DNA of 40,000 nt, taken from the NCBI GenBank assembly GCA_050289485.1, contig JBNKFV010000029.1, positions 21,810 through 61,809 on the forward strand. Direction: 5' to 3'. The notes below the pieces were generated by a model, which saw nothing but the letters and a program-made list of their open reading frames with translations, made no database searches and had not been told where the DNA came from. The position numbers were made by a program, and so were the translations under genes. Numbering within the stretch: the stretch's first letter is position 1; each line of letters starts with the position of its first letter. This document shows positions 6,101 through 27,745 of the stretch, piece by piece. This DNA comes from Cellvibrionaceae bacterium. GTDB lineage: Bacteria; Pseudomonadota; Gammaproteobacteria; Pseudomonadales; Cellvibrionaceae.

Positions 6101-6672
6101 CTGCGATGAGTAACGAGCGTAAGCGCTGTTTCGATGTGGGTATGGACGATTACCTAAGCAAGCCAGTCGACCCGGTTAATCTTTATGCGGTATTAAAAAA
6201 ATGGGTGCCAGACAACGTTTTAGCATCAACAGATGACGCTGTAGATTACGTTGTAAAAGAGGAGAGCGCCACTGAGCCTGTTGCGCCTTTGAAACATGAG
6301 CAGCAGGAGGGTAACGAACTCTTGTGGGATCGAGACGGTGCATTGGCCAGGCTTGGCGGGCGCGAAAATCTGTTTGCCAGGGTGGCGACCATTTATTTGG
6401 AAACTTCACCTCAGGTGGTCAGTGATCTTAATGAAGCTGTGGTTGATGACAATGGTGTTGCCATTAAAAGTGCGGCTCATAGTCTTAAAGGTATTTCTGC
6501 CAGCATTGGGGCAATGCGTGTGGCGGCCTACGCGCGAAAGATGGAAGAGTTATTGGAAAGTGGCACTGTCGCAGAAAGAGCTGCCGTGATGGAAAAGCTG
6601 AATACCCATTATCATGAGGTGATGGCGCTGTTGTCAGCGCAGGGTTTGTCCTCGATGGAGGCACTTGATTAA
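3145..6672 (+). CDS. Hybrid sensor histidine kinase (periplasmic sensor, PAS, HisKA-HATPase, degenerate receiver-like linker, receiver, HPt)
   Basis: GTG start. Domain order: TM helix LIVAVIFFLVLSVALYSF, a roughly 300-aa extracytoplasmic segment, second TM IVLLAAFSIAFTVIYFY, coiled coil, H-box SHEIRTPMNG, N-box NLLGNAIKFT, G-boxes DTGVGI and GGTGLGLSI, receiver (MLVVDDHHINRE..DLVFMDCQMPVMDG..SKP), HPt (AAHSLKGISASIGA). Confidence 0.9.
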   Translation: MAAIERQVSRFGVGLIVAVIFFLVLSVALYSFTKQSVEHEVHANQLAELEAKKQLIVARFNEGYKEVVFLSKVPPVDGIIRATKNQGVDPYDKTSLDEWKRRLETIFHAYIQSHPSIRQIRYIGYANDGLELVRVEREQGAIVIVPERKLQAKGNRSYFKEIAELDTNSLYISDLELNKEHGKIQYPAWPTYRVAMNIVDESLQPFGFVIINYDATDLLDSIDDSEQGYFTYLLNNNEQFLLHHMPEWGFAFEEHDRAGWGDYFSNALVMDSTQFSTTVSPTGVVKRYSSTRLNGRYAGGKPLILVESIPQNSLNKIVFDRYITGQIVLLAAFSIAFTVIYFYHRALMEGVNRSRLTKKYQAIFTGARDAILIFDGKRKLVDANTAALQLFDLSPTALYEASFSHLFGDDASTVRDLLAISQAGAFTSEQEMTIGTAENARIITIAFSQIEADKKADYHYVCIACDVTDEREASQLIASTNERLQIEVEARTQELEAAVDRAELATKTKSQFLASMSHEIRTPMNGVFGMLNLMRRDPLSKRQLRNLEMAEASVRSLTELVNDILDISKIEAGKLDIETAQFDLCKLLHSCATSCSILLADKPVLFLVDISDIEHGWVLADSNRIRQIINNLLGNAIKFTSFGEVRLYASTRKEEDGSITLYCSVSDTGVGISSEKLPTLFSAFVQEDIATARNYGGTGLGLSICKQLCDLMGGSIEAKSVKGMGSMFSFTLPLQLPSNSTRDVSLHSAEPTRVALALDVESLLSVVNKVFNTFGHQVEELTFDQLIRDLSGHALDDFYVVAADSRMYQKYAAQFEKYRAMRETPLLLLLVNQEYQTKDNDLDASKLPAHTLVLETPVSLVSIAAGLNAMDSDRFWFESQRVGADATERPSYDLTGKSMLVVDDHHINREVMRGILEDCGALVVDAKDGQEALDILSLHEHNDPFDLVFMDCQMPVMDGYQATRAIRESVAGAGNKDIPIVAVTAAAMSNERKRCFDVGMDDYLSKPVDPVNLYAVLKKWVPDNVLASTDDAVDYVVKEESATEPVAPLKHEQQEGNELLWDRDGALARLGGRENLFARVATIYLETSPQVVSDLNEAVVDDNGVAIKSAAHSLKGISASIGAMRVAAYARKMEELLESGTVAERAAVMEKLNTHYHEVMALLSAQGLSSMEALD

Positions 6673-6744: not shown

Positions 6745-7206
6745 CTAAAATATTTTGAAAATTTCTTTAAAGGTATCTTTGGTAAACACAGATTGCTTTT
6801 TCAGACCAACCACCCGAAAGTAGGTGACCACGTAATCGGCTGGGTCTACGTGGCAGTAGATGTAAGCGTTTTTGTATACCTGCAGGGTGCCTACATGGGC
6901 GAATAGGGTAACCAGGTACTCTTGACGGCGCTCTTCAAACCGTGATGAGTGCCAGTCGGTTTGCGTGCGCACCAGCTCGTTGCCCAAATTGAGTTTGGAT
7001 TTATCTTCACACACATCAATAGCGTCGTTCAGATCAAATGGAATATACGTAAAGTTGCGCCCAGCGAAGCGATCCACAGGCTTTGCCTTAGGCTGATAAT
7101 AGGTGGAAAAATACACCGTTAATGCGCTGGCTGAAATCACCATCGCCGCTGCAAGGCTTACGTATACACCGGTGGGCCAGTGCTGTGGATTCAACCAGCG
7201 AGGCAC
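6745..7206 (-). CDS. Hypothetical membrane-anchored protein, putatively controlled by a c-di-GMP riboswitch
   Basis: This is the only long ORF downstream of riboswitch A on the minus strand. The start is ambiguous: TTG at 7239 (ORF-track start), or GTG at 7206, which lies 4 nt after the stop of an 18-codon uORF. It has one hydrophobic anchor (GVYVSLAAAMVISASALTVYF). I recognise no family. Confidence 0.6.
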   Translation of the reverse strand: MPRWLNPQHWPTGVYVSLAAAMVISASALTVYFSTYYQPKAKPVDRFAGRNFTYIPFDLNDAIDVCEDKSKLNLGNELVRTQTDWHSSRFEERRQEYLVTLFAHVGTLQVYKNAYIYCHVDPADYVVTYFRVVGLKKQSVFTKDTFKEIFKIF

Positions 7207-7350
7207 GGTATTAGCCCTCAGCTGCCAGGCTGACCACAAGAAAAGAAGTGAGTAAACGTGTGTTCATGTTTGCCTACCACCTGTCAAAACAACATTAGCA
7301 TTGTGTTGAACCGGCAGTCGCTGCTCGCGGGCAGGTGTGGCCAGGCACAA

Positions 7351-7433
7351 CTCCATTCGGTAACCGTTCGACCCACCACATAGCGATGGGCACTGGCTTT
7401 GCGTCCCCGCGTTACCACGGGTTTGCCTTTTCG
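7351..7433 (-). promoter_or_regulatory. c-di-GMP-I (GEMM-I) riboswitch aptamer, copy A
   Basis: The minus strand reads CGAAAAGGCAAAC-CCCGUG-GUAA-CGCGGG-GACGCAAAGCC-AGUGCCCAUCGCUAUGUGGUGGGUCGAACGG-UUACCGAAUGGAG. All conserved GEMM-I blocks are present in the correct order: GGCAAAC, a GNRA-capped hairpin, GGGACGCAAAGCC, P2, GGUUACCGAWGG. Confidence 0.85.
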
Positions 7434-7604
7434 AGGAGCAGGCAGAGCCTTCTCATTCGAAAGTATTGCATGTAACTGGTTAAAAAGTGTGAACTAGAGC
7501 ACGCTCTGTGTCAATTGCTATGACAGCATTTTGCGCCAATTTTTGCCGATATTTTAGCCAGTGAGGTGCCTCAGGCTCCTAAACACTAGCTGTGGCTTTG
7601 TAGT

Positions 7605-7637
7605 CTCCGGTGCAGGCTACGCAGCCTGTCACCGGAG
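7605..7637 (-). terminator. GC-rich hairpin downstream of gcvP (terminator-like, no clear U-tract)
   Basis: CTCCGGTG-CAGGCT-acgc-AGCCTG-t-CACCGGAG is a nested perfect 8+6 bp stem about 39 nt after the gcvP stop. Neither strand has a T-run after it, so an intrinsic-terminator function is uncertain. Confidence 0.4.
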
Positions 7638-7675
7638 TAGAGCGACTTGAGTTCACGAAATCTCTGGTACGCCTG

Positions 7676-10564
7676 TTACTGATACGCCAACATCGGTGGG
7701 CATGAGCACACCACGTTGCGGTCGCCAGCAACATTATCAATACGATTTACGCTCGGCCATACTTTGTGCAGTGTTAGCCACGGGGCTGGGGTAACCGCTG
7801 TTTCCCGTGAATAGGGCCGGTTCCACTCACCGAGAATATCAGCCTGCGTATGTGGCGCATTGCGCAACGGGCTGTTTTCCAGTGAGTAGTGGCCGTCTTC
7901 AATATGTTGAATTTCCTGGCGCAGAGTAATCATGGCGGTAATAAAGCGATCGAGCTCGGCTTTAGATTCGCTTTCTGTGGGTTCAATCATCAGCGTACCG
8001 GGCAATGGAAAGCTCATGGTGGGCGCATGAAAACCAAAGTCCATCAACCGTTTGGCAATATCTTCTTCGGTGACGCCGGTGCGTTCTTTAATATCACGTA
8101 AATCCAGCAAACATTCGTGTGCAACAAAACCGTTTTCACCGACGTACAGTACTGGAAAATACGGGCTTAATTGTTTGGCGATGTAATTTGCATTCAAAAT
8201 GGCATATTGAGTAGCCAGTGTTAAACCCTGGCCGCCCATTAAGGTGATGTACATCCAGCTAATCGGCAGAATAGAGGCAGAGCCCCAGGGTGCAGCAGAA
8301 ATTACTTCGCTAAACTCACCCTCAGCCGCCAGCGGATGTGCAGGTAAAAACGGTTTTAAATGTTCGGCCACGCCAATCGGGCCCATGCCAGGGCCGCCAC
8401 CACCGTGGGGAATACAAAAGGTTTTGTGCAAATTTAAATGGGATACATCGCCACCAAATTCACCGGGGGCCGCTACACCCACCATGGCATTCATATTGGC
8501 GCCATCGACATACACCTGCGCGCCCACACTGTGGATTATCTCGCACAGCTCCCGCACACGCGGTTCGTATACGCCATGAGTAGATGGGTAAGTAATCATG
8601 ATGCAGGCAATACGCTCGCCGTGTTCTGCCACCAGCGTTTTTAACTGCTCGATATCTACGTTGCCTTTTTTATCGCAGCCGGTGACCAGAATATCCATAC
8701 CGGCCATTTGCGCTGAAGCGGGGTTGGTGCCGTGCGCTGATGATGGAATAACACAGTAAGTTCGTTGCGTTTCCCCGCGATGTTGAAAATAATTTTTAAT
8801 CGCTAGCAGGCCCGCGTACTCACCCTGCGACCCGGCATTGGGCTGCAAGCTCACGCCAGCATAGCCAGTGCACATTGCCAGCATGTGTTCTAAATCACTG
8901 AACAGTTGCTGGTAGCCTTGCCATTGTTCTGCCGGTGCAAACGGATGCAGTTGGGAAAATTCTGGCCAGGTAACCGGTAGCATTTCTGCGGTGGCGTTAA
9001 GCTTCATGGTGCAAGAGCCCAGTGCAATCATCGATTCATCCAGCGCGATATCTTTGCTGGCCAAACGTTTGATATAGCGCAGCATGTCGGTTTCAGAATG
9101 GTACTGGTGAAACACTGGATGTTGCAGAATATCATCCTGGCGTAGAAGCTCTGGCGCAATGCCGTGTGCGGCCTTGCTGACTGATGCATCAATGGCGGCA
9201 AGATCAATGCTGGTAGTGTTATCGCAGAAAATTGCCAGCAATTGCTGCACATCGTCTACCGTAGTGCGCTCGTGCAGGCTAATACTCAGGTGCTTGTCAT
9301 CACAGCGGCGCAGATTAATTTTTTCTGCCAGTGCTTTATCAAATAAAGCTTGAGTTTTGTCGTTGGTGACCAGCGTTAAGGTATCGAAATAAGTTTGCTC
9401 GGCCAGCGTGTAGCCTGCTGCTTGTAGTGCTTGCGCCAGCATGCCTGTGAGGCGGTGTATGCGGTGGGCAATGCGACGCAGTCCATCTGGCCCGTGATAA
9501 GCCGCATAAAAGCTGCTCATGATGGCCAGCAATGCCTGCGCAGTACAAATATTGGAGTTGGCCTTTTCGCGACGAATATGTTGCTCGCGGGTTTGCATGG
9601 CCATGCGCAGAGCAGGTTTGCCACGGCTGTCTACTGATACGCCAATAATGCGGCCGGGTGCCGCGCGTTTGTATTCATCACGAAAGGCGAAGTAACCCGC
9701 GTGTGGGCCGCCCATACCCATGGGCACGCCAAAGCGCTGGTTGGTACCCACCACGATATCGGCACCCATCGCCCCCGGTGACTTTAACAACACCAGCGCC
9801 ATTAGGTCGGCTGCCACGGTGGTGAGAGCACCCTTGTCTTTAATTATTTCAATAACAGGTGTTAAGTTTTTAATGCTGCCACAGGTGCCGGGATATTGTA
9901 ACAGCGCGCCAAAAATATCGAGATTTTCGAGATCGGTTGCTGGATTTCCCACAATAATGTCGAAGCCAAAGTGCCTGGCGCGGGTTTTTATCACCGCAAT
10001 GGTTTGTGGGTGGGTGTCTTTATCGACGAAATAGGCCTGGCTTTTGTTGCGCTTCTGTACCCGCTTGCTCATGGTCATGGCTTCGGCCGCGGCAGTGCCT
10101 TCATCCAGCATAGACGCGTTAGCCATGCCCATGCCGGTGAGATCCATAATCATTTGTTGAAAGTTCAACAGGCCTTCCAGGCGGCCTTGTGAAATTTCTG
10201 GCTGGTAGGGCGTATAGGCGGTGTACCAGGCTGGGTTTTCCAACACGTTGCGCTGTATCACCGCCGGTACAATGGTGTCGCTGTAGCCCATGCCGATATA
10301 GGTTTTGTAACACTGATTCTGTGCTGCGAGCCCGCGCAGCTTCTCCAAAGCATGTTCTTCTGTCATTGCGCCGGGCAGGTTCATGGCTGTTTTCAGGCGA
10401 ATGTTTTCTGGCACCGCGTTTTCTACTAGTTCGGTTAACGACTTCACGCCCAGTGTGTTGAGCATGGTGGTGGTCTCGGCGGCGTCCGGGCCAATGTGTC
10501 GGCGGAAAAATGCTTCGTTGTTTTCGAGTGCGGTGAGGGAAGCATGAAGAAAGTCGGTTGCCAT
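7676..10564 (-). CDS. gcvP: Glycine dehydrogenase (decarboxylating), glycine cleavage system P protein
   Basis: 962-aa single-chain P protein with the PLP-lysine context SHLNLHKTFCIPHGGGGPGMGPIGV and full-length GcvP architecture. No gcvT or gcvH lies in the window. Confidence 0.95.
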   Translation of the reverse strand: MATDFLHASLTALENNEAFFRRHIGPDAAETTTMLNTLGVKSLTELVENAVPENIRLKTAMNLPGAMTEEHALEKLRGLAAQNQCYKTYIGMGYSDTIVPAVIQRNVLENPAWYTAYTPYQPEISQGRLEGLLNFQQMIMDLTGMGMANASMLDEGTAAAEAMTMSKRVQKRNKSQAYFVDKDTHPQTIAVIKTRARHFGFDIIVGNPATDLENLDIFGALLQYPGTCGSIKNLTPVIEIIKDKGALTTVAADLMALVLLKSPGAMGADIVVGTNQRFGVPMGMGGPHAGYFAFRDEYKRAAPGRIIGVSVDSRGKPALRMAMQTREQHIRREKANSNICTAQALLAIMSSFYAAYHGPDGLRRIAHRIHRLTGMLAQALQAAGYTLAEQTYFDTLTLVTNDKTQALFDKALAEKINLRRCDDKHLSISLHERTTVDDVQQLLAIFCDNTTSIDLAAIDASVSKAAHGIAPELLRQDDILQHPVFHQYHSETDMLRYIKRLASKDIALDESMIALGSCTMKLNATAEMLPVTWPEFSQLHPFAPAEQWQGYQQLFSDLEHMLAMCTGYAGVSLQPNAGSQGEYAGLLAIKNYFQHRGETQRTYCVIPSSAHGTNPASAQMAGMDILVTGCDKKGNVDIEQLKTLVAEHGERIACIMITYPSTHGVYEPRVRELCEIIHSVGAQVYVDGANMNAMVGVAAPGEFGGDVSHLNLHKTFCIPHGGGGPGMGPIGVAEHLKPFLPAHPLAAEGEFSEVISAAPWGSASILPISWMYITLMGGQGLTLATQYAILNANYIAKQLSPYFPVLYVGENGFVAHECLLDLRDIKERTGVTEEDIAKRLMDFGFHAPTMSFPLPGTLMIEPTESESKAELDRFITAMITLRQEIQHIEDGHYSLENSPLRNAPHTQADILGEWNRPYSRETAVTPAPWLTLHKVWPSVNRIDNVAGDRNVVCSCPPMLAYQ

Positions 10565-10787
10565 GAAAATTACCTTGTTGCTGAAAAGGGGACTATACCT
10601 TGACTATTGGATTGAATCCGCGCACGTTAAGCCGCGCGAAAAAGGCGCGAATTATAATGGATTTTGCAGAGCGCGCCGCGGTTTTGCCAAGGCGTACGGG
10701 TAATTTTTCAGGTAGTTGTTGCACCTTACTTTAACGATGGTTAGTATTTTTGCATTGGAGTTGCGCGAGTGCTGCTATTGACAGGTC

Positions 10788-10815
10788 TCTCGCGTGTACT
10801 AAACTGTGCGCTCCG
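10788..10815 (+). promoter_or_regulatory. Candidate sigma70 promoter for the riboswitch B leader
   Basis: TTGACA (10788-10793), 16-nt spacer, TAAACT (10810-10815). This is about 75 nt upstream of the aptamer. Sequence match only. Confidence 0.4.
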
Positions 10816-10890
10816 TCACGATTGAGTGATGGCGTTCTGGCAGGTTTGATTCAACGGCCATCTGATACAAACCAGAGGGTATCTGCCCCG

Positions 10891-10967
10891 CGAACAGGCA
10901 AACTTGTGGTAACACAGGGACGCAAAGCCAGTGCCCAGTCTAATGGGTCGAACGGTTACCGAACGGG
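10891..10967 (+). promoter_or_regulatory. c-di-GMP-I (GEMM-I) riboswitch aptamer, copy B
   Basis: Reads CGAACAGGCAAAC-CUUGUG-GUAA-CACAGG-GACGCAAAGCC-AGUGCCCAGUCUAAUGGGUCGAACGG-UUACCGAACGGG. It has the same conserved blocks as copy A. It is followed by a GCGUCU/AGGCGC hairpin plus U-run (10964-10997) that overlaps the 3' side of the aptamer. Confidence 0.85.
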
Positions 10968-11008
10968 CGTCTGCTTCAATAGGCGCTTACACTTTTTAGT
11001 TGCGAGCG

Positions 11009-11494
11009 ATGACGTTGAAGCGAGATAAGTCTAATCCACGGTTAACCGTTGTCCGTGGGCAAGAGGCGAGCCAGACAACGCAGATTGGTGTTGCCGACCG
11101 GCGCAAAGACGTGCGCTATGTTGTGCAGTTGCCTGCGTGGATCCGCCTTGCGTCGGAATATGATCTGCCAGTGTCTGCCAGCAGTATGCCGGTGACTATC
11201 CCACCCCACGGTAGTGTCGTTAACCTATCCAGCTCTGGACTTTGTTGCATCGTGCCCTTTGAGCAGTTGGGCGATTTAATGCGTATTAAAAACAGAGCCG
11301 ACTGGCGCACCCTGTTACCCGTTGTTATTCGCTTTCAATTACCCGCAAAGCAACTGGTGTCTATTGTGTGTGGTGTTGCCTATGTGCGGCGGGCAAAGGT
11401 CGATCATGCCGAGGTGGGGGTATGTTTTCAGCAGTTTATAACGGGTGAGCAGCAGCTGGCTGAGTATATCGAACACCTTAAGCAACGTTTGTAG
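11009..11494 (+). CDS. PilZ-domain protein (c-di-GMP receptor type)
   Basis: Contains both halves of the PilZ binding signature: RRKDVR (RxxxR) and NLSSSG (D/NxSxxG). ATG at 11009 is preferred over the TTG at 11000, but the start is not well supported by an SD. Confidence 0.8.
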   Translation: MTLKRDKSNPRLTVVRGQEASQTTQIGVADRRKDVRYVVQLPAWIRLASEYDLPVSASSMPVTIPPHGSVVNLSSSGLCCIVPFEQLGDLMRIKNRADWRTLLPVVIRFQLPAKQLVSIVCGVAYVRRAKVDHAEVGVCFQQFITGEQQLAEYIEHLKQRL

Positions 11495-11551
11495 CGGGTC
11501 TTGTCGTTGCCGCCAGTTTTGTCACAGCGCTATCGTGCTATCGTTAGCCCT

Positions 11552-12148
11552 ATGAAAAACTCCTTATCCAATATTTCTCTTGTCGATGTGCTGACCGAAG
11601 CGCGTAACTGCCAGTTATGTCGTGATAGTTTGCCGTACGAACCCAATCCGGTAGTACGTGCTGCGCCGAGTGCGCGCCTGTTAATTGTGGGGCAGGCCCC
11701 TGGTTTGAAAGTACATAACAGTGGTATCCCATGGGATGACGCCTCGGGTGACCGCTTGCGGCACTGGCTGCAGCTAGATAAGGAGGCGTTTTATAACGAG
11801 ACAGATATCGCCATTATCCCTATGGCCTTCTGTTATCCAGGGCGTGGTAAAAGCGGCGATCTGCCGCCGCCCAAAGTGTGTGCGCCCCAGTGGCATTCAC
11901 GCTTGTTAGCGCAGTTACCTGAGCTGCGCCTGACCTTGCTGATTGGCCAGTATGCACAACAGTATTATTTGAATGACCGTTTCAAAACACTCACCGAACG
12001 GGTGCGTCACTGGCGGGAGGCTGGGCCTGCCTTGTTACCACTGGTACACCCATCACCACGCAATCAGTATTGGTTGCAACAAAATCCCTGGTTTGAGTCA
12101 GAGCTGCTACTGGATTTACGGGCTCGTGTTAAGCTGGCGCTTAAGTAA
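11552..12148 (+). CDS. Uracil-DNA glycosylase superfamily protein (GQAPG-motif type)
   Basis: ARLLIVGQAPGLKVHNSGIPWDDASGDRLRHWL resembles UDG-superfamily motif A, and a C-terminal HPSPRN resembles motif B. Four Cys residues (CQLC, FCYPG, VCAP) could bind an Fe-S cluster. The start could also be the TTG at 11501. Confidence 0.7.
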   Translation: MKNSLSNISLVDVLTEARNCQLCRDSLPYEPNPVVRAAPSARLLIVGQAPGLKVHNSGIPWDDASGDRLRHWLQLDKEAFYNETDIAIIPMAFCYPGRGKSGDLPPPKVCAPQWHSRLLAQLPELRLTLLIGQYAQQYYLNDRFKTLTERVRHWREAGPALLPLVHPSPRNQYWLQQNPWFESELLLDLRARVKLALK

Positions 12149-12163
12149 TAACGGACGTAGAGA

Positions 12164-12733
12164 ATGAGTAAAGTAAAAACCGGTGGCTGGGTATGCCACA
12201 GTAGTAAGGTAGTTTACGAAAACCCATGGATTCGTGTAAGTCATGAAGACGTTACCACACCCAAAGGCACGGCCAATATTTATGGTGTAGTACATTTTAA
12301 AAATGCCGCCGTGGGCGTAGTGCCGGTGGACAACGAAGGCTACACTTGGTTAGTGAAGCAAAGCCGTTACACATTGGATGCCTACACCTGGGAAATTCCC
12401 GAAGGCGGTAGCCCCGACGGTGAATCCACTGAAGCGACGGCGTTGCGAGAGTTGCAAGAAGAAGTGGGCTTGCAGGCTGAATCACTAGAACTCCTGCAGC
12501 GGCTGCACCTGTCGAATTCGGTTACTGATGAATACGGTGATATTTTTTTAGCGACAGGTTTGAGCGCCGTGCCTATGGCTCACGAAGACACAGAAGATAT
12601 TGAAGTGTTGCGATTACGGTTAACCGAGGCTATTGCCATGGTGCGTAAAGGTGAAATTACCGACGTGTTATCGGTAGCCGCATTGCTTGAGCTGGCTTTG
12701 CGTATTGCGGAAAACGGTGAGTTCTGGCGCTAA
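12164..12733 (+). CDS. Nudix hydrolase (ADP-ribose/nucleoside-diphosphate pyrophosphatase-like)
   Basis: Nudix box GGSPDGESTEATALRELQEEVGL (GX5EX7REUXEEXGU). It starts 15 nt after the preceding ORF. Confidence 0.85.
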   Translation: MSKVKTGGWVCHSSKVVYENPWIRVSHEDVTTPKGTANIYGVVHFKNAAVGVVPVDNEGYTWLVKQSRYTLDAYTWEIPEGGSPDGESTEATALRELQEEVGLQAESLELLQRLHLSNSVTDEYGDIFLATGLSAVPMAHEDTEDIEVLRLRLTEAIAMVRKGEITDVLSVAALLELALRIAENGEFWR

Positions 12734-13022
12734 TACGAAAGAGGACGACTTACGCCGCCCTCTTATATCGTTGCATTAAGCTAATAACATTCAGTTATTG
12801 CTTAAGATAACAACTTTTTCTTTGTCGGTTTCTTCTTCCGTCATTATTAACCTCCTGATTTGTCCAGCGCTTAAAGAAAACGTCTGTGCATCAGGCCCGT
12901 ATTTTTTATTTATTGATTGCACAGAGTTTTGCCTGCAACGTTTTATCGCTAACGCGTGACAATTTGTTGACAGGCAGAAAGGAGCTTAGGCAACACGTGC
13001 CATGGCTTCAAGTTACAAGCGC

Positions 13023-13709
13023 CTATTCGTCGTCAGAATCATTGAATAAATGAAAAAGCGCATCTTTTTCATTTTGGTTTACGCTGGAGGTATCGTCTTT
13101 GCGGTGGGTTTTGGCATGGCAGACCTGGTTGCGCCCTTTATGTTTTGCTCGGTATAGCTGTTCATCGGCACGCTTGATCAGCGACTGAGCAGTGTCTTGA
13201 AACGGCTGTTGAAACACTGCTACCCCAATACTGGCCGTTACGGTTAAAGTCTTACCACTCTGGGTTATTACTGGTGTTTCCTTCAGCGTTGTGCGAATAC
13301 GCTCGGCAACTGTGAGACTGGTGAGTAAACTGGTGCCCGGCAAAATAATGGCAAACTCTTCACCCCCGTAACGGCAGGCGATATCGAGGCGGCGTATAGA
13401 AGCACGCAAAATATCGGCAGTATGCTGTAATACTTCGTTGCCGATGTCGTGCCCGTAGGTGTCGTTCACCGATTTGAAGTGGTCAAGATCGAGAAGAATA
13501 AGCGCCGTAGACTGGCCAGTACGCTGCGAACGTTCCAGCTCCTGCTCCAGCGCCTCGGTAAAGTAATGGAAGTTATGCAGATTGGTGAGTGCATCTGTAC
13601 CCACTTGCACTTTGAGCGCATCAACCTGGTTACGTAATGCGATTACTTTTGGTGGCCAGGGGCAGCGTTCACCTGCTGGACACTCTGATTCATTGCCGGG
13701 TTGATCCAC
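13023..13709 (-). CDS. GGDEF-domain diguanylate cyclase with intact I-site
   Basis: Active-site RYGGEEF with RRLD (RxxD) exactly 5 residues upstream. GTG start. The short Cys-containing N-terminus (ECPAGERCPWPP) precedes a coiled-coil-like segment. Confidence 0.85.
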   Translation of the reverse strand: MDQPGNESECPAGERCPWPPKVIALRNQVDALKVQVGTDALTNLHNFHYFTEALEQELERSQRTGQSTALILLDLDHFKSVNDTYGHDIGNEVLQHTADILRASIRRLDIACRYGGEEFAIILPGTSLLTSLTVAERIRTTLKETPVITQSGKTLTVTASIGVAVFQQPFQDTAQSLIKRADEQLYRAKHKGRNQVCHAKTHRKDDTSSVNQNEKDALFHLFNDSDDE

Positions 13710-13902
13710 TGAAATACGCCGTTGTTTGTTTGAACAGGCCCTAAATTGGCATGTAAAGTATTATGCTGGCAGGGTTAAGATTAATTAACCGTAGCCGCTA
13801 TAGCAACTATCACGCAACGAAAGTTGGCCTTAGGGCTTGGGTTACAGAGTTATTTATCGACCATTTTCGTTAGATATTTAGTGCAACACGAGGAATCTGC
13901 TT

Positions 13903-14433
13903 GTGCCCTCTGTTCTTCGCCCCTCCATTATCGATGTTGAGGCCTCAGGGTTTGGCGTTCACAGTTATCCCATTGAAATAGGGGTGGTTACTGCGGCTGG
14001 AAAACGCTACTCGGCATTGATAAAGCCCATAAAGCGCTGGACTTACTGGTGCGATCAAGCTGAGGAGGTCCATGGTATTGGCCGTGATCTGTTGATGGCG
14101 CATGGGCGGCCCATTCAACAAGTGGCGCATGAGCTCAATACACTGCTGGGCCGGCAAACGGCGTATTCCGATGGCTGGGTGGTTGATGCACCGTGGATTG
14201 ATCAACTGTTCTATGAAGCGCGGGTTAGGCGAAGTTTCTATGTAAGCCCGCTGGAAGCTGTGCTATCGGAGGAGCAAATGGCAATATGGCATACCACCAA
14301 AGAGGCGTATCTGCACGACAGCGACTTGTCGCGTCACCGGGCCAGTCTCGATGCTTTGGTGATACAGGAAACCTATGTTAGAACACAGAGGGTGTTACAG
14401 AACTGTCACCCAAAACAGGCTGCTAAAGAATAA
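13903..14433 (+). CDS. DEDDh-type 3'-5' exonuclease family protein
   Basis: ExoI IDVEASGF (DxE), ExoII YSDGWVVDAPW, ExoIII HRASLDA (Hx4D). GTG start. Confidence 0.7.
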   Translation: MPSVLRPSIIDVEASGFGVHSYPIEIGVVTAAGKRYSALIKPIKRWTYWCDQAEEVHGIGRDLLMAHGRPIQQVAHELNTLLGRQTAYSDGWVVDAPWIDQLFYEARVRRSFYVSPLEAVLSEEQMAIWHTTKEAYLHDSDLSRHRASLDALVIQETYVRTQRVLQNCHPKQAAKE

Positions 14434-14446
14434 GCACGCAGAGACG

Positions 14447-14483
14447 AAAAAAGGGGGTTGATACAATATCAACCCCCTTTTTT
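14447..14483. terminator. Bidirectional rho-independent terminator
   Basis: AAAAAA-GGGGGTTGATA-caa-TATCAACCCCC-TTTTTT is a perfect 11-bp stem flanked by an A-run and a T-run. It serves the exonuclease gene (+) and the sRNA (-). Confidence 0.9.
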
Positions 14484-14628
14484 GAAAGGTTTTACCTAAG
14501 ACGAAAATAACCTCCGTATCGACGTCTGTCCATAGACGAAATCCCTGTAGTGTCCTAAGTAGCCCTTTAAAGAGGGCGCCTCCCTTGACAATCCTTGCCG
14601 GTAGTGACTCCCTGTCAACATCCTTGTG
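14447..14628 (-). ncRNA. Csr/Rsm-family (CsrB/RsmY/RsmZ-like) CsrA-sequestering sRNA
   Basis: The minus strand carries eight GGA motifs in about 150 nt: ACAAGGAUGU, ACAGGGAGU, GCAAGGAUU, UCAAGGGAG, UUAGGAC, ACAGGGAU, UAUGGAC, UACGGAG. Several sit in short hairpin loops, for example CGUCU-AUGGAC-AGACG. The RNA ends in the strong terminator. There is no credible ORF. The 5' end is estimated from an AATAAT/TAATAC -10 at 14633-14640. Confidence 0.75.
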
Positions 14629-14684
14629 GTACGTATTATTGGTTCTATTGCGGGGTAATCCTAGTGGGGCTTTTCCACGTGTTC

Positions 14685-14702
14685 TGTGAGATATGGCTTA
14701 CG
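14685..14702 (-). promoter_or_regulatory. GacA/UvrY-box-like upstream activating sequence
   Basis: The minus strand reads CGTAAGCCATATCTCACA. The consensus is TGTAAGN6CTTACA, giving 2 mismatches. It lies about 60-75 nt upstream of the predicted sRNA start. Confidence 0.55.
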
Positions 14703-14721
14703 CGGTTGAGATTGCACGTAT

Positions 14722-15660
14722 TCACTGAGTTCGTTTTGTTTGTTTCTGAATGTCAAGATCACTCATCAAGCGATTGCGGCCGCTCTCTTTGGCCAAATAC
14801 AGAAACCTATCCGCACGCTGAAGGGTTTCTTCTATATTGTTGTCTTCGGGCAGGGCGGCGGTTAGCCCAAGGCTTAGGGTAAGGTGTATGGGTTTGCCAT
14901 CGTGGCCCATAAAGGGGGTGTTGGCCACGGTATGGCGCAATCGTTCGGCGAATACCATGCCGCCTTCTACTGCTGTATCACTGCAGCACAACACAAACTC
15001 TTCGCCGCCAAAACGCGCAAAAATATCAGATTCACGTTTGTATTCCTGGCAGAGGTTACTGATTTCAGTCAGCACTTTGTCGCCAGACGCATGGCCATAT
15101 TGGTCATTAATACGTTTAAAGTGGTCAATATCAATCATCAGCAGGCACATTGGCCTGTCGTAGCGTTTGCTGCGCGCAAATTCGGCGTTGGCCAACTCAA
15201 AAAAATGCCTTCGGTTAAAGGCACCGGTAAGAGGGTCCTGTGCGGCCAGTGTTTTGAGCTGCTGATTAGTATCTTCCAGTTTTAGCTGCGATTCACGTAG
15301 CCGCAGGGCAGAGCGCACACGGGCTGCCAATATGGGATAAACAAAGGGTTTGGATACGTAGTCGTGTGCACCAAGATCCAGCGCCTCAACAATATCTTTC
15401 GTATCCTCGTTGGCAGAAACCATGATCACGGGAATGTCAGTATAAGCGGGGTTAGCGCGAATTTGCTTGAGGGTTTGTATGCCGTTCATTATCGGCATAA
15501 ACAGGTCTAACAGCACCAGGTCGGGTTGATGCTGCTCAATGGCCTTAAGGCATTGCTCACCGTTTTGTGCTGTATATACTTCGTAGCCTTCATCTTCCAG
15601 CTCAAAACTCAGTAGCTGCAGGTTATCTGCGATGTCGTCGACAATGAGTATTTTGGCCAT
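14722..15660 (-). CDS. Response regulator with GGDEF output (PleD/WspR-like diguanylate cyclase)
   Basis: N-terminal receiver (KILIVDD..DLVLLDLFMPIMNG..DYVSKP). C-terminal RFGGEEF with RESD (RxxD I-site) 5 residues upstream. Confidence 0.9.
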   Translation of the reverse strand: MAKILIVDDIADNLQLLSFELEDEGYEVYTAQNGEQCLKAIEQHQPDLVLLDLFMPIMNGIQTLKQIRANPAYTDIPVIMVSANEDTKDIVEALDLGAHDYVSKPFVYPILAARVRSALRLRESQLKLEDTNQQLKTLAAQDPLTGAFNRRHFFELANAEFARSKRYDRPMCLLMIDIDHFKRINDQYGHASGDKVLTEISNLCQEYKRESDIFARFGGEEFVLCCSDTAVEGGMVFAERLRHTVANTPFMGHDGKPIHLTLSLGLTAALPEDNNIEETLQRADRFLYLAKESGRNRLMSDLDIQKQTKRTQ

Positions 15661-16994: not shown

Positions 16995-17669
16995 ATGAAA
17001 ATCATCTTACTTCCTGGGCTTGATGGTACGGGGGCGCTTTTCGATGCCTTAGTAAATAACTTACGAGAAGGCGTTGATACGGAGGTTTTGACCTATGAAA
17101 AAATTGATAGTCTTACGTACACTGATCAGGCAGAGGAAATAGGTCATAGAATAAAAGATACGGATGTTGTCTTGGTCGGAGAATCCTATTCAGGACGAGT
17201 AGTCTACGAGCTGAACCAAATTTTGGGGGAAAGAGTGAAAGCAGTTGTATTTATAGCTAGTTTTATTTCGTGTCCGTCAAAGGTAGCTAAGCTTGCTGGT
17301 TACATTCCTATTGGGCTATTAAAGCCAAATTTTATTAACAAAAGCCTGTTAAATATATTCGGGTTTAATCGTCAAGCAACACCTACACTAATTGATAGTG
17401 TGTTTTCCTCTATAAGTTCGGCTAATAAACAAAAATTAAAAGCTAGGCTGAAAAATATTTCAGGCCTTACTAAATCGCAAGTAAAGATATATAGTCCAGT
17501 AACTTATATACGTCCAAACCGTGACCTACTAGTAGGTCGTGGCTCGGTAGAACATATTAAGTCTTTATGCGTTAATTTCAAAGAAGTTACGGTATCTGGC
17601 GGTCATTTTATAGCTCAATCGGAGCCAGAAGAATGTGCAAAGGTAATTTTAAATGCAGCAAGCATGTAA
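16995..17669 (+). CDS. Alpha/beta-hydrolase fold protein (cassette 1)
   Basis: MKIILLPGLDGTG N-terminus and the nucleophile-elbow-like VLVGESYSGRV. The ATG at 16995 overlaps the read-through stop of the transposase remnant. The gene is visibly AT-richer than its surroundings. Confidence 0.75.
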   Translation: MKIILLPGLDGTGALFDALVNNLREGVDTEVLTYEKIDSLTYTDQAEEIGHRIKDTDVVLVGESYSGRVVYELNQILGERVKAVVFIASFISCPSKVAKLAGYIPIGLLKPNFINKSLLNIFGFNRQATPTLIDSVFSSISSANKQKLKARLKNISGLTKSQVKIYSPVTYIRPNRDLLVGRGSVEHIKSLCVNFKEVTVSGGHFIAQSEPEECAKVILNAASM

Positions 17670-17756
17670 CAAAACAATCAACCGGACTCCGCTAAGCGTG
17701 GTTCGCTTCGCTCACAATACCACGCTTAGCTACGCTCGGTTATTGTGGCGTTAAGT
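17664..17756 (+). repeat. attC-like recombination site 1
   Basis: It starts at the stop codon (TGTAACAAAAC) and ends in GTTAAGT, which fits the GTTRRRY core. The outer arms ACAATCAACCG / CGGTTATTGT pair with one unpaired base. The inner arms GCTAAGCGTGGT / ACCACGCTTAGC (17691-17702 / 17719-17730) are a perfect 12 bp. Confidence 0.6.
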
Positions 17757-17774
17757 GTTTTCAGGGAGGAAACT

Positions 17775-18272
17775 GTGAGTAAGTATCAAATTGCCCAGCT
17801 CAACATTGCCACACTAATGGCTCCAATCGATTCGCCTCAGCTTTCAGATTTCGTCGCGAATCTGGAGAGGATTAACGCGTTGGCTGAGGACTCGCCTGGT
17901 TTCGTCTGGCGCTTGCAAACCGACGAAGGTGATGCCACCGGCATTGATTATTTTGGCTCCGATAAGATCGTGAATCTTTCTCTCTGGGATTCGGTCGAGG
18001 CTTTGCATAATTACGTTTATCGGTCTGCCCACGTCGAGATCATGCGTCGCAAGAAGGAGTGGTTCCACAAAATGGGAGAGGCATACATGGTTCTTTGGTG
18101 GGTGCCTGCCGGTCACATTCCCTCAGTCGAAGAAGCGGCGCAAAAGCTAATCATCCTGCGAGAGCACGGACCAACCGCCGAAGCTTTCACGTTCAAAAAA
18201 GCCTTCTCAGCTCCCAGTGAATTCGACGGTGTGCCAAACGATACTTTGGGTGGTGAATGTCCCGCCACTTAA
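17775..18272 (+). CDS. DUF3291-family protein (cassette 2)
   Basis: GTG at 17775 is preceded by GGGAGG. The sequence SKYQIAQLNIATLMAPIDSPQLSDFVANLERINALAEDSPGFVWRLQ matches my memory of the DUF3291 family. Confidence 0.75.
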   Translation: MSKYQIAQLNIATLMAPIDSPQLSDFVANLERINALAEDSPGFVWRLQTDEGDATGIDYFGSDKIVNLSLWDSVEALHNYVYRSAHVEIMRRKKEWFHKMGEAYMVLWWVPAGHIPSVEEAAQKLIILREHGPTAEAFTFKKAFSAPSEFDGVPNDTLGGECPAT

Positions 18273-18346
18273 CAAATCAATTAAGTTCGTTCCGGCCTAC
18301 GGCCTCCACCGGACGGCCCTGTCGGGCCGCCGCTTATTTTCGGCGT
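18268..18346 (+). repeat. attC-like / terminator-like structured element 2, interrupted at its 3' side by the intron
   Basis: It begins ACTTAACAAATC, where ACTTAAC is a perfect RYYYAAC. It contains the hairpin CGGACGGCCC-tgtc-GGGCCGCCG followed by CTTATTTT. A possible displaced core, ATTAGGC, lies at 19788-19794 just after the intron. The assignment as attC is uncertain. Confidence 0.35.
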
Positions 18347-19783
18347 GTGTGCCAGACATGGCATTTAACTAGAGAGGTGCAAGTCCTCTTACCAGGTATT
18401 CGCAGAGCCGAAGGTTAGCCAAAGGGCAAGGTTATTGCCGCGAGGTAATGGCTGAACCGAATCAAACCTCCTTGTTAATGCAACGTATCGTAGAAAGGAC
18501 AAACCTACAACGAGCATTAAAACAAGTTCAACGCAATAAAGGCGCCCCCGGTGTTGACGGTATGACGGTAAGCCAATTACCGAACTACCTAAAACAACAC
18601 TGGCCGCAACTGCGCGAGCAACTGGTTACGGGACGATACAAACCGCAACCGGTGAAACGCGTAGAAATTCCTAAAGCCAACGGCAAAATGCGTAAACTCG
18701 GGATACCTGCTGTGGTAGATCGATTTATACAGCAAGCCATCGCACAAGTACTCAGCGGGCACTGGGAAACCGTATTCCACCCGAACAGCTTTGGGTTTCA
18801 TCCCAACAAATCAGCACACCAAGCGATTCGAAGCGTGCAGCACTTTGCACGAGACGGGTATCGCATCGTGGTTGATCTGGATCTGGCGAGCTTCTTTGAC
18901 GAAGTGAACCACGATCGTTTAATGGCGACGCTCAAACGCACACACCCGGAAAACGATGTTCTACGGTTAATCAACCGTTACCTGAAAGCGCCAGTGCAAA
19001 TGCGCGATCAGAACGTAGCATCAACAAAAGGTGTCCCACAAGGTGGACCGCTATCCCCGTTGCTTGCCAATATTGTGCTTAACGAACTGGACTGGGAATT
19101 AGAGCAGCGACAGCTACGATTCGCACGCTACGCCGATGACTGCCAAATACTGGTGGGTAGTTATCGCGCTGGCGAACGTATCATGGCAAGCCTGACGCGC
19201 TTTATCGAGAAAACACTGAAGCTCAAAGTGAACGACGAGAAAAGCGCGGTGGCGGCGGTACATAAGCGAAACTTTCTGGGTTTTACGCTGGCCCGCAAGG
19301 ATAAGCGGATAAAAGTCAGCAAACAATCCCTCGCGAAATTGAAGGCAACGGTGCGTACTGTCACCCGCCGAACACGAGGCCATTCGTTTCAACACATCCT
19401 TGACGAGTTAAAGAAAAGCCTGCTTGGTTGGAAAGCGTACTTTGACATCAGCGAAGTACTGAGCCCTCTGAAAGATATGGACAAATGGATTCGGCGTAAA
19501 TTGCGGTGCTATCTATGGAAGCAGTGGGGAAGATCGGGCTATCGACGTTTAAGACGGTTAGGTGTTGATAGGCTGCTGGCCTGGAACACGGCTAAATCGG
19601 CCCACGGTCCTTGGCGTCTGAGCAAAAGCCCCGCGCTTTACTACGCGCTACCAAACAGATACTTTAGGAACTTGGGGCTGCCTGAATTGGCGACAAGGAC
19701 AAATTGATGATTTGAACCGCCGTGGTACGTGACCCGTATGCCCGGTGATGTGGGAGGAGAGGTGTCGTGAGGTGCCTCCCTAT
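18347..19783 (+). mobile_element. Group IIC intron (apparently with a truncated 5' ribozyme portion)
   Basis: The 5' end GUGUGCCAGACAUGG...GGUGCAAGUCC resembles the Oceanobacillus iheyensis IIC intron 5' end (GUGUGCCCGGCAUGG...GGUGAGAGUCC, recalled from memory). The 3' end GAACCGCCGUGGUACGUGACCCGUAUGCCCGGUGAUGUG is domain V-like with a CGC triad. It is followed by the domain VI hairpin GGGAGG..CCUCCCUAU. The element encloses an RT/maturase ORF. Confidence 0.75.
18448..19707 (+). CDS. Group II intron reverse transcriptase/maturase (no endonuclease domain)
   Basis: RT blocks: RNKGAPGVDGMT, RKLGIPAVVDRFIQQA, SFGFHPNKSAHQA, DLDLASFFDEVNHD, GVPQGGPLSPLLANIVLNELD, RYADDCQILV. The maturase X region is LLGWKAYFDIS..WIRRKLRCYLWKQW. 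The 419-aa size fits class C. Confidence 0.92.
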   Translation: MAEPNQTSLLMQRIVERTNLQRALKQVQRNKGAPGVDGMTVSQLPNYLKQHWPQLREQLVTGRYKPQPVKRVEIPKANGKMRKLGIPAVVDRFIQQAIAQVLSGHWETVFHPNSFGFHPNKSAHQAIRSVQHFARDGYRIVVDLDLASFFDEVNHDRLMATLKRTHPENDVLRLINRYLKAPVQMRDQNVASTKGVPQGGPLSPLLANIVLNELDWELEQRQLRFARYADDCQILVGSYRAGERIMASLTRFIEKTLKLKVNDEKSAVAAVHKRNFLGFTLARKDKRIKVSKQSLAKLKATVRTVTRRTRGHSFQHILDELKKSLLGWKAYFDISEVLSPLKDMDKWIRRKLRCYLWKQWGRSGYRRLRRLGVDRLLAWNTAKSAHGPWRLSKSPALYYALPNRYFRNLGLPELATRTN

Positions 19784-19813
19784 CCCGATTAGGCAGACAA
19801 AAGGAGAATCAGG

Positions 19814-20215
19814 ATGGCTTTGCCAATCACTTCATTACTAACGGGCATCTTTATGTTACTTATGGTGCCTTTGAGTCTTCAAATCTCGATAAGCCGCGCA
19901 GAGATCGGCGGTATGTCTGGTGGTCTCACATTTGGCGATGGTGGGGATGAATCTCTGCGCCGCAAGATCAGGGCACATGGCAATTTCATCGAGTACGCTC
20001 CCGCGGCACTTATTGCACTCGGTCTCGTTGAATACGGCGGAGGAGAGAAAACTCTCGTGATCGGTTTTGCTGGTGCTTTCCTTATCAGTAGGCTGATGCA
20101 TGCAGGTGGAATGCTCTACACCTCCACACCGCTCCTTCGTGGTATAGGCATGCTCATACAGCACGTCGCTTTTATTATCGCTGGCGGTTGGCTTGTACAG
20201 CAAGTGGCTGCGTAA
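19814..20215 (+). CDS. MAPEG-family inner membrane protein (YecN-like; cassette 3)
   Basis: FGDGGDESLRRKIRAHGNFIEYAPAALIALGLVEYGG closely parallels E. coli YecN (YGDGGFSELQSAIRIHGNAVEYIPIAI..., from memory). An AGGAG SD lies 8 nt upstream. Confidence 0.75.
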   Translation: MALPITSLLTGIFMLLMVPLSLQISISRAEIGGMSGGLTFGDGGDESLRRKIRAHGNFIEYAPAALIALGLVEYGGGEKTLVIGFAGAFLISRLMHAGGMLYTSTPLLRGIGMLIQHVAFIIAGGWLVQQVAA

Positions 20216-26220: not shown

Positions 26221-27726
26221 TTATGGATTGCCTTTTATTGAGGCCAGGAAGTCGGTATGTAGTGGTAGCGCCTGGGCTGCCTGTGCCGTTTGCTGGCGCA
26301 GCATGGCGAGAATCTCGCGTATTTTGTTGGGGTCGGTCTGGTCAACCAGGGCGCTATATCCCTCGGGGTAGATACCTTGGCCGAGCAGTACTGCCAGCCA
26401 GCTGGTTATTGAAAAGAGGTCTTCTTCCCGGCGTTTTAACTGGCCAGCTGCTCGAAACAAATTAACTTTGTTCTCCAGGCTGGGTGTGAAGCCAATAGTT
26501 TTACGTTCCTGCCAAAAGGGGTCGTTGTCTCTGTTATTAGCAGCATAATGCAGTATTAGAAAATCCCGGATATTTTCAATTTCTACCATTCCCATACGGT
26601 TGTATTGGTCAATCAAGGGTTGCTCGAAACGTCGTGACGGGAAAAGATTCAGCAACCTGCCAATGGCCGATTGAACAAGATGGATGCTGGTTGATTCAAG
26701 CGGTTCCAAAAAGCCAGAGGATAAGCCAATGGCAACGACGTTTTTTTCCCAGAGCTTATTTCTGCGCCCGGTAGTGAAGCGGATAAGGCGGGGATCGGCA
26801 AGTGGGGCTCCGTCGATTGCTGTCATCAAGGTTTGTTCAGCTTCACTGTCACTGATATGAGTGCTGGAATATACGTAGCCGTTACCGGTGCGATGCTGAA
26901 GTGGGATGCGCCATGTCCAGCCGGCGGCTTGCGCTGTGGATCGGGTATATGGAATCGGCTCTTCTATTTTGGCGGAAGGAACCGCTAGAGCGCTATTGCA
27001 GGGTAGCCAATGAGACCAGTCGGTGTAGCCAACCTTTAAGGTCTGTTCGATGAGCAGGCCCCGAAACCCAGAGCAGTCAATAAACAGATCTGCCTTCAGC
27101 GCGCGTCCGTCTTCCAGCACAACGTGAGTGACGTGCCCGCTATCCGAGTCCAGTTCGGCAGCGAGAACGCGTCCTTCATGGCGTGTGACCCCGCGCGCTT
27201 TTGCCAGATTACTGAGATAGGATGCGTAGAGCGAAGCATCAAAATGGAAGGCGTAGGACAAACGTGCCAGTGGGGAGGTGGCGGGCTGCTTGCCGGGGCG
27301 TGCAAAGCGCTTTGCGCGGGCGAGTTGTGCGTTAACACTGTAGTCGTCAATATCACCCGCGTATCCGTCATTGTTGGCTTTTAGCCAATAGTGGTGAAAA
27401 TCGGTGGCGTCGATGGGTACGCCATAGCTGCCGAAAGGGTGGAGATAACTATGGCCCTGGCGTTGCCAGTTCACAAACTCGATACCCAGTTTGTAAGTAG
27501 CCTCTGTGGCACGGACAAATTCATTCTCGTCGATGCCGAGCATACGGTTATAGGCCTGAATAGGGGGTATGGTTGCCTCGCCGACGCCGATAATGCCAAT
27601 TTCATCGGATTCCACCAGTTCAATTTTTACCGTTTTTAATATCGTCGCCATCGCGGCGGCGGTCATCCAGCCTGCGGTGCCGCCGCCAACAATCAGAATG
27701 TTGCGAATAGGTTCTTGTTGTGTCAT
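26221..27726 (-). CDS. Tryptophan-halogenase-family flavoprotein, paralog 1 (full motif set)
   Basis: GGGTAGW (GxGxxG), GVGEATIP, Lys79 in ATYKLGIEF, FIDCSGFRG, GWTWRIPLQ (WxWxIP), GFLEPLESTSI. Confidence 0.85.
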   Translation of the reverse strand: MTQQEPIRNILIVGGGTAGWMTAAAMATILKTVKIELVESDEIGIIGVGEATIPPIQAYNRMLGIDENEFVRATEATYKLGIEFVNWQRQGHSYLHPFGSYGVPIDATDFHHYWLKANNDGYAGDIDDYSVNAQLARAKRFARPGKQPATSPLARLSYAFHFDASLYASYLSNLAKARGVTRHEGRVLAAELDSDSGHVTHVVLEDGRALKADLFIDCSGFRGLLIEQTLKVGYTDWSHWLPCNSALAVPSAKIEEPIPYTRSTAQAAGWTWRIPLQHRTGNGYVYSSTHISDSEAEQTLMTAIDGAPLADPRLIRFTTGRRNKLWEKNVVAIGLSSGFLEPLESTSIHLVQSAIGRLLNLFPSRRFEQPLIDQYNRMGMVEIENIRDFLILHYAANNRDNDPFWQERKTIGFTPSLENKVNLFRAAGQLKRREEDLFSITSWLAVLLGQGIYPEGYSALVDQTDPNKIREILAMLRQQTAQAAQALPLHTDFLASIKGNP

Positions 27727-27745
27727 GGGTCTTTTCCGTTGGTTT

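Follow-up and report, generated by a model that had tools for sequence, protein, structure and literature searches.

Does a GGA-rich gap between two convergent genes of a Cellvibrionaceae bacterium encode a small RNA (sRNA) of the Csr/Rsm type? The gap lies in a 40-kb stretch of contig JBNKFV010000029.1 (the window, to which all coordinates refer), and this stretch together with short contigs from metagenome-assembled genomes (MAGs) makes up our view of the genome. The gap spans 288 nt (14434-14721), not the 240 nt given in an earlier, sequence-only reading of the window, and separates an open reading frame (ORF) for a protein of 176 aa (13903-14433, plus strand) from a gene whose product carries the Pfam domains Response_reg and GGDEF (REC-GGDEF; 14722-15660, minus strand). 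Independent gene calling on contigs of the source MAGs shows this gap as well, and the window sequence is identical in contigs of two MAGs (GCA_050304315.1 and GCA_050290445.1). The earlier statement that no credible ORF is present stands, given that the 41-aa ORF found there is not conserved. Judged from its sequence, the minus strand of this gap probably encodes a GacA/UvrY-activated sRNA that titrates CsrA/RsmA.

The predicted sRNA comprises ~182 nt (14447-14628, minus strand), with the 5′ end placed by a -10 element and the 3′ end by the U-run of a terminator. The minus strand of the gap carries 10 GGA triplets and the plus strand none. Eight of them fall within 14623-14513, at sRNA positions 6, 18, 35, 46, 74, 85, 98, and 114 (window positions 14623, 14611, 14594, 14583, 14555, 14544, 14531, and 14515), and the remaining two (14676 and 14661) are situated upstream of the predicted transcription start. 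All eight occur in A(N)GGA contexts (CACAAGGAUGU, ACAGGGAGU, GCAAGGAUU, CAAGGGAGG, UUAGGACA, ACAGGGAUU, UAUGGACA, and UACGGAGG). The first of these, located at the very 5′ end of the sRNA, contains the sequence ACARGGAUGU, which we take to be the core of the CsrA consensus from systematic evolution of ligands by exponential enrichment (SELEX). With both strands of the window considered, at least eight GGA per 182 nt are reached at this place only (peak 10; means 1.7-1.8; plus-strand maximum 7). The A(N)GGA count likewise peaks at the sRNA, with 11 per 182 nt; the strand means are 0.7-0.8, and the second-highest spot reaches 7, the background being the window only. In mononucleotide shuffles of the sRNA, the probability of obtaining at least eight GGA is 0.005. 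The eight minus-strand GGA motifs of the sequence-only reading are thus confirmed as a strand-specific maximum that is unique in the window.

The sRNA is conserved at the same locus in relatives. Using homologues of the 176-aa protein as anchors, we recovered syntenic loci from the lineages L083/L084 (GCA_050290265.1) and L085/L086 (GCA_050300105.1) and from a fragment, L087, that covers the terminator end only; the full-length comparison therefore consists of three sequences (window, L083, and L085). Proteins encoded on either side share 44-65% identity with their counterparts in the window. With 69-81% nucleotide identity, the sRNA region is conserved at least as well as the adjacent coding gene (61-75%), and the unit measures 182, 182, and 183 nt in the three lineages. 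All eight GGA are found at equivalent sRNA positions (6, 17/18, 35, 46, 74, 85/88, 98/102, and 114/118). In the six triplets that share the alignment register, 18 of 18 columns are identical, compared with 62% elsewhere in the sRNA body. The sequence-only reading had proposed looking for a conserved sequence at this locus in relatives, and the search recovered the entire unit, with its eight GGA, its -10 element, and an upstream box at fixed spacing.

This box is an 18-bp imperfect palindrome (14685-14702; CGTAAGCCATATCTCACA on the minus strand, TGTGAGATATGGCTTACG on the plus strand) that deviates from TGTAAGN6CTTACA at two positions and putatively represents a GacA/UvrY-type upstream activating site. 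The relatives share the form TGTAAGCATT[A/C]TCCTACA. Their orthologous boxes (TGTAAGCATTATCCTACA in L083 and TGTAAGCATTCTCCTACA in L085) show one mismatch each, with 0.01 such matches expected per 8.5-kb locus. In three of three lineages, the center of the box lies exactly 65 nt upstream of the sRNA start motif CACAAGGA, which places the box at about -74 to -57. The alignment of the three promoters contains zero gaps from the box to the sRNA start; conservation sets in at the box and is absent upstream of it. The 5′ edge of the window box (~ -74) matches the position of the GacA box of Pseudomonas aeruginosa rsmY, which is found at -75 (PMC4950607).

Downstream of the box, a predicted -10 hexamer, AATAAT (14635-14640, minus strand), is invariant in the three lineages and lies 6-7 nt upstream of the conserved CACAAGGA. 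Equally invariant is a CCACTA element (14662-14667, minus strand; ~ -39 to -34; alignment columns 74-79). It sits at the -35 position of the promoter, is unlike the sigma-70 -35 consensus, and might be contacted by the activator or some other factor. A good -10 element without a consensus -35 element would fit an activator-dependent promoter.

The 3′ end of the sRNA is formed by a rho-independent terminator (14447-14483, minus strand), in which a G+C-rich stem of 11 bp carries a UUG loop and is followed by a U6 tail (GGGGGUUGAUA-UUG-UAUCAACCCCC, flanked by A6 and U6), confirming the perfect 11-bp terminator with a U-run that had been described before. L083, L085, and L087 retain this terminator with a stem of different sequence. 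Because of the preceding A6 run, it is bidirectional in shape and able to serve also the convergent gene for the 176-aa protein, which ends at 14433. A simple terminator scan did not list the sRNA terminator, perhaps because A-U pairs lengthen the stem and absorb the T-run.

The predicted minimum free energy (MFE) of the sRNA is -63.4 kcal/mol (z = -4.06 versus shuffles), and in a fold common to the three lineages 93% of cells pair overall. Hairpin 1 (UGAC-AGGGA-GUCA; 14605-14617, minus strand) presents a GGA in its loop with a probability of being unpaired of 0.90-1.00. It takes the form UUGAC-AGGAC-GUCAA in the relatives, and its helix is 93% paired across lineages. A weak GGC...GUC hairpin around AAGGA is also common to all three. 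Hairpin 3 (GCCCU...AGGGC; 14562-14577, minus strand), the loop of which contains no GGA, appears to be structural and shows a compensatory change from G-C to A-U (columns 54:69). Hairpin 5 (CGUCU-AUGGAC-AGACG; 14523-14538, minus strand) exposes a GGA in a hexaloop and shows a compensatory change from U-A to A-U (columns 99:110); the corresponding loops of the relatives read ACGGAC and AAGGAC, and their GGA is unpaired in L083 and L085.

In addition to these local hairpins, a long-range helix of nine pairs between ACUUAGGAC (14560-14552) and GUCUUAGGU (14502-14494) is predicted in the three lineages (14494-14560, minus strand). This helix encloses GGA motifs 6-8 and sequesters motif 5, with a pairing probability of ~1.0, and its 3′ arm is kept in the L087 fragment. 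GGA motifs 2 and 3 are unpaired with a probability of >0.9 in the window and in L083, and motif 7 resides in the conserved hexaloop. In the MFE fold, six of eight GGA are fully unpaired in L083 and three of eight in L085. The common fold is a model compatible with the data, not one proven by covariation.

From sequence anatomy, conservation, and the fixed promoter geometry, we infer that the sRNA is transcribed, depends on GacA, and binds CsrA. A phosphorylated GacA/UvrY-type response regulator would occupy the palindromic box (about -74 to -57) and activate the promoter with its AATAAT -10 element and without a consensus -35 element. The resulting transcript of ~182 nt would terminate at the intrinsic terminator. 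It would display eight A(N)GGA motifs, some in small hairpin loops (AGGGA and AUGGAC) and others in single-stranded stretches; one of the motifs, CACAAGGAUGU at its 5′ end, is a nearly perfect high-affinity site. CsrA/RsmA dimers would be bound on the GGA sites and thereby be titrated off their mRNA targets. With two GGA sites per CsrA/RsmA dimer, one sRNA could hold up to about four dimers. Multiple GGA motifs are needed for sequestration (PMC2375449).

How does this architecture compare with that of established Csr/Rsm sRNAs? Kulkarni et al. (2006) described five sequence features of CsrA-regulating sRNAs, namely an intergenic location, a high content of AGGA/ARGGA, a rho-independent terminator, GGA in loops or free regions, and a conserved upstream site (PMC1488887). 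All five are present here. The sRNA lies in an intergenic gap, is rich in such motifs, and ends in a terminator of the required kind; on the predicted folds, its GGA motifs occupy loops and free regions; and its upstream site is of the csrB/csrC/rsmY type, with one to two mismatches and identical spacing in three lineages. Together with the conservation, these features support the core of the sequence-only reading, namely an sRNA of the Csr/Rsm type that repeats GGA and is preceded, at a distance like that of rsmY, by a GacA/UvrY-like box. The Rfam search that it suggested gives no match, and its claims of a sole Gac/Csr output RNA and of a physical link to cyclic di-GMP (c-di-GMP) signaling are not supported (see below).

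The closest parallel is RsmY of Pseudomonas (RF00195), which is likewise intergenic and independently transcribed from a promoter with a TGTAAGN6CTTACA-type GacA box ~75 bp upstream (PMC4950607), an arrangement that is predicted from sequence for the sRNA of the window. Both RNAs have their first GGA a few nucleotides from the 5′ end, contain 7-8 GGA that are partly located in hairpin loops, and end in a rho-independent terminator. RsmY sequesters RsmA/RsmE dimers, and the window sRNA would act in the same manner. In contrast to the ~182 nt of the window sRNA, however, RsmY measures ~120 nt, lies in another genomic context, and shows no detectable homology in sequence or structure (11.5 bits versus a gathering score of 57). 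The 9-bp long-range helix that buries one GGA is a further difference between the window sRNA and RsmY.

CsrB of Escherichia coli (RF00018) also presents repeated GGA in hairpin loops, and hairpin 1 of the window sRNA (GUUGACAGGGAGUCAC) differs little from the first CsrB hairpin, GUCGACAGGGAGUCAG. The palindromic UvrY box of csrB, TGTGAGAGATCTCTTACA, resembles TGTGAGATATGGCTTACG of the window. With 369 nt and 22 GGA, CsrB is longer and denser in GGA (6.0 versus 4.4 per 100 nt), its box is positioned 174-191 bp upstream (as measured here) instead of ~57-74, and its Rfam model does not match the window sRNA. CsrB/CsrC of Marinomonas mediterranea and CsrB1/CsrB2 of Shewanella oneidensis were found bioinformatically by the same triad of a GacA box, many unpaired ANGGA/AGGA motifs, and a terminator, and for both pairs dependence on the UvrY homologue was demonstrated afterwards (PMC8523701; PMC3171408). 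The Shewanella RNAs are longer (~420 nt; PMC3171408). Whereas the RNAs of Marinomonas and Shewanella are validated by expression data, that of the window is known from sequence alone.

Several observations weigh against the assignment. The sequence-only reading had proposed an Rfam search, for which we used the Rfam 15 covariance models of clan CL00106 (CsrB/RsmZ), namely CsrB (RF00018), CsrC (RF00084), RsmY (RF00195), and rsmX (RF02144); RsmZ was not identified in the output. No Csr/Rsm model matched at its gathering score, and in the window none matched at E ≤ 10. The best scores, in the relatives, were ~15 bits against cut-offs of 56-61: CsrC with 15.4 and 13.9 bits (cut-off 61, terminator only), rsmX with 15.3 (cut-off 56), and RsmY with 11.5 (cut-off 57). 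These weak matches to three members of the clan lie on the correct strand and are suggestive only. Because no Rfam model reaches its gathering score, the sRNA is not a member of the described Csr/Rsm sequence families.

The box of the window, taken alone, is not above chance, as two matches with at most two mismatches occur in 40 kb versus 1.34 expected. Its significance derives from its position and its conservation, so that the earlier claim of a GacA/UvrY-like box holds for the two-mismatch match, the rsmY-like distance, and the presence in relatives, but not for the match in the window by itself. The promoter has no consensus -35 element, and a sigma-70 scan called no site there. Loci of other organisms reach 7-12 GGA per 182 nt in places (stretches that were not mapped to genes), and GGA density alone is therefore not diagnostic across genomes. 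In the MFE fold of the window sRNA itself, only three of eight GGA are fully unpaired, and motif 5 is always buried in the long-range helix. Covariation amounts to the two compensatory pairs described above and is not significant (126 of 500 shuffles of the three sequences reach it). For the long-range helix, covariation speaks neither for nor against pairing because this helix never varies.

Could the GGA-rich segment simply be the 3′ untranslated region (UTR) of the REC-GGDEF mRNA, perhaps processed out like RsmW, without a GacA-dependent promoter of its own? The stop codon of REC-GGDEF (14722) is only 19 nt from the box and no terminator lies between them; read-through into the sRNA is therefore to be expected, and REC-GGDEF has no terminator available other than that of the sRNA. 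That an Rsm sRNA can originate from a 3′-UTR is known from RsmW of P. aeruginosa (PMC4950607), a GGA-rich RsmA-binding RNA just downstream of a coding gene on the same strand, again with no terminator between. RsmW, however, has neither a nearby GacA box nor a -10 element of its own and is not expressed without the promoter of the upstream gene (PMC4950607). At the locus studied here, box and -10 element are both conserved and stand at a fixed distance without gaps, whereas the sequence upstream of the box is unconserved. Moreover, L085 lacks a REC-GGDEF orthologue (tblastn finds a stand-alone GGDEF paralogue only), and a DUF6231 gene followed by ~144 nt of unrelated spacer precedes the box instead; the box, the -10 element, and the sRNA are nevertheless retained. 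With both promoter elements conserved and the upstream gene replaceable, the sRNA does not appear to be of the RsmW type. The persistence of box, promoter, and sRNA without REC-GGDEF, together with the conserved promoter elements, argues for an independent gene and not merely a 3′-UTR. We therefore regard an exclusive 3′-UTR origin as unlikely and an independent transcription unit, as predicted from these sequences, as the better reading. Read-through may add to sRNA expression, which is compatible with an independent gene.

Slightly less probable still is that the sRNA, though conserved, belongs to another class, for instance that of base-pairing RNAs dependent on Hfq or ProQ, or that the region is simply a conserved bidirectional terminator with incidental GGA motifs. 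The missing Rfam match to Csr/Rsm models and covariation too thin to fix the structure would be in line with another class, and the bidirectional terminator, which the convergent 176-aa gene needs, would be in line with a terminator region. Terminator function, however, accounts for the last 37 nt only, whereas conservation is concentrated in the GGA triplets (18/18 columns versus 62% elsewhere), all eight of which stand in A(N)GGA contexts. The sRNA strand contains zero TCC, that is, the complementary strand contains zero GGA. Furthermore, the GacA-type box is specific to the class of CsrA-regulating sRNAs (PMC1488887; PMC8523701). The idea that the region encodes a small protein, finally, can be rejected as extremely improbable. 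The 41-aa ORF (14496-14621, minus strand) is the sole ORF inside the sRNA and has an AAGGA immediately before its ATG. No spacer separates this AAGGA from the ATG. In the alignment, the two relatives have AAG where the window has ATG, and the reading frame is disrupted by indels (4 and 2 nt). A CsrA-titrating sRNA with its own promoter thus accounts best for the locus.

The distribution of the sRNA was followed with an nhmmer profile of the three sequences, which matched every syntenic locus and found no second copy in the window and nothing beyond the syntenic loci in 95 records (596 kb). Distant anchors, namely the exonuclease homologues P0005, P0006, and P0015 and homologues of DUF6231, showed neither synteny nor an sRNA homologue, and the same was true of the GcvP neighbors in Maricurvus and a JGI contig. 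A search of genome contigs with the REC-GGDEF protein returned only paralogues of at most 41% identity without synteny. A scan of metagenome contigs with the pattern CAAGGANGTTGACAGGNNGTCA gave three matches, all of which we attribute to chance (two inside ORFs, one in an unrelated TCC-rich stretch); a pattern from the 3′ end (GTCTTAGGTANNACCTTT...) might be a better query.

In L096 and L097, a spot rich in GGA ahead of a CBS-GGDEF gene was considered as a distant counterpart and rejected, as it has neither terminator nor box; the nhmmer profile gave no match in these two loci. The spot appears to be a conserved 5′ leader. It is strongly conserved in Maricurvus nonylphenolicus and a related JGI contig (L097 7090-7235 and L096 7030-7175, plus strand), with conserved stretches such as TGTCG[T/C]AATCTGGCGTTTCAATACACATCAGGA and GTTGATGTCTCCGAAGGGAT and no terminator, and may be an uncharacterized cis-regulatory leader.

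Is the sRNA tied to c-di-GMP signaling? The sequence-only reading had seen a physical link between the Csr and c-di-GMP circuits in the adjoining diguanylate cyclase response regulator. This link is not conserved, since REC-GGDEF is absent from L085, where the DUF6231 gene takes its place; a coupling of the sRNA to c-di-GMP signaling would be lineage-specific at best. The convergent 176-aa gene is the sole gene that constantly adjoins the sRNA across lineages. A speculative variant, to which we give little credence, is a dual-output element placed among two GGDEF genes, a PilZ gene, and two c-di-GMP-I riboswitches within 8 kb; where a lineage retains REC-GGDEF, read-through would provide the cyclase mRNA with a CsrA-sponge 3′-UTR, making it both CsrA-stabilized or -controlled and CsrA-titrating, with the GGA-burying helix as a switch that opens on CsrA loading or processing.

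The surroundings form a dense c-di-GMP island within 9 kb (6745-15660), in which the sRNA is accompanied by a PilZ gene, two riboswitches, REC-GGDEF, and a further GGDEF gene that stands alone (13023-13709, minus strand). All relatives show synteny for the NUDIX, GGDEF, and 176-aa genes but not for REC-GGDEF. The two riboswitches are c-di-GMP-I aptamers (RF01051) at 7356-7437 (minus strand) and 10887-10963 (plus strand), scoring 60.8 and 53.4 bits. A 164-aa ORF with a PilZ domain (11000-11494, plus strand) directly follows one of them, and the other precedes a 164-aa ORF without an assigned family (6745-7239, minus strand); by BLASTP (E = 2.5), these ORFs are not paralogous to each other. It is unusual to find a c-di-GMP riboswitch ahead of a gene for a PilZ receptor.

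The window also encodes an unorthodox hybrid sensor kinase of 1175 aa (3145-6672, plus strand; sensor domain, PAS, HisKA, HATPase, REC, and Hpt). Its best NCBIfam match is BarA, in the transmitter core only and with 390 bits versus a cut-off of 890 bits; on such evidence it is not a BarA/GacS orthologue and provides no evidence for a Gac system. The neighboring 176-aa protein, labeled a DEDDh exonuclease in the sequence-only reading, has no Pfam match. Weak support for this label comes from an NCBIfam DnaQ-epsilon match (E = 0.004) and from the more than 1000 homologues of the protein, a few of which carry RNase_T (PF00929) or PF16473 and one of which is named a 3′-5′ exonuclease. The protein appears to belong to a divergent, unannotated 3′-5′ exonuclease-like family.

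Further downstream, the window contains an ORF for a group II intron reverse transcriptase/maturase (18448-19707, plus strand; RVT_1 and GIIM). No Rfam group II intron RNA matched at E ≤ 0.1 within 17600-20000, and a possible domain V is located, by its appearance, at 19700-19740. The second-densest A(N)GGA spot of the window (~19630, plus strand) falls in this region and is not an sRNA; it covers the end of the reverse transcriptase ORF and the ribosome-binding site of a MAPEG gene. The segment 20357-39182 is a carbohydrate-utilization neighborhood that includes genes for a SASA esterase, MFS_2, GH1, two ROK proteins, and a GH5 cellulase, as well as three tandem genes of the tryptophan-halogenase family (26221-30750) followed by a TonB-dependent receptor (31038-34187). 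Such a combination is typical of marine polysaccharide-degrading gammaproteobacteria.

The GcvP protein of the window shares 66-68% identity with those of Maricurvus, Exilibacterium, Marinimicrobium, Simiduia, and Microbulbifer, the nearest named relatives. Together with the cluster of TonB-receptor, tryptophan-halogenase-family, GH1, and GH5 genes, this would fit a deep-branching, uncultured Cellvibrionales-like gammaproteobacterium as the source. A Gac/Csr system is expected in Cellvibrionales. BarA/UvrY (GacS/GacA) is well conserved among gammaproteobacteria (PMC3171408), and a Csr/Rsm sRNA is no surprise in a member of this class. For Cellvibrio, Saccharophagus, Microbulbifer, and Teredinibacter, the genera queried, the papers searched contain no report of a Csr/Rsm sRNA. 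The stronger statement of the sequence-only reading, that this is the Gac/Csr output RNA of the organism, cannot be asserted from the 40 kb of genome in view, as paralogues are common in this class of RNAs.

The sRNA would be an ordinary kind of CsrA-titrating RNA, but its sequence family is beyond any Rfam model. It leaves the understanding of how Csr/Rsm systems work unchanged and illustrates once more that RNAs of this class must be sought by architecture, not by homology. For deep-branching, uncultured Cellvibrionales-like polysaccharide degraders, in which Rfam annotates nothing, it provides a concrete and testable Csr/Rsm sRNA, and a covariance model built from it could seed the annotation of Gac/Csr outputs in related marine genomes.

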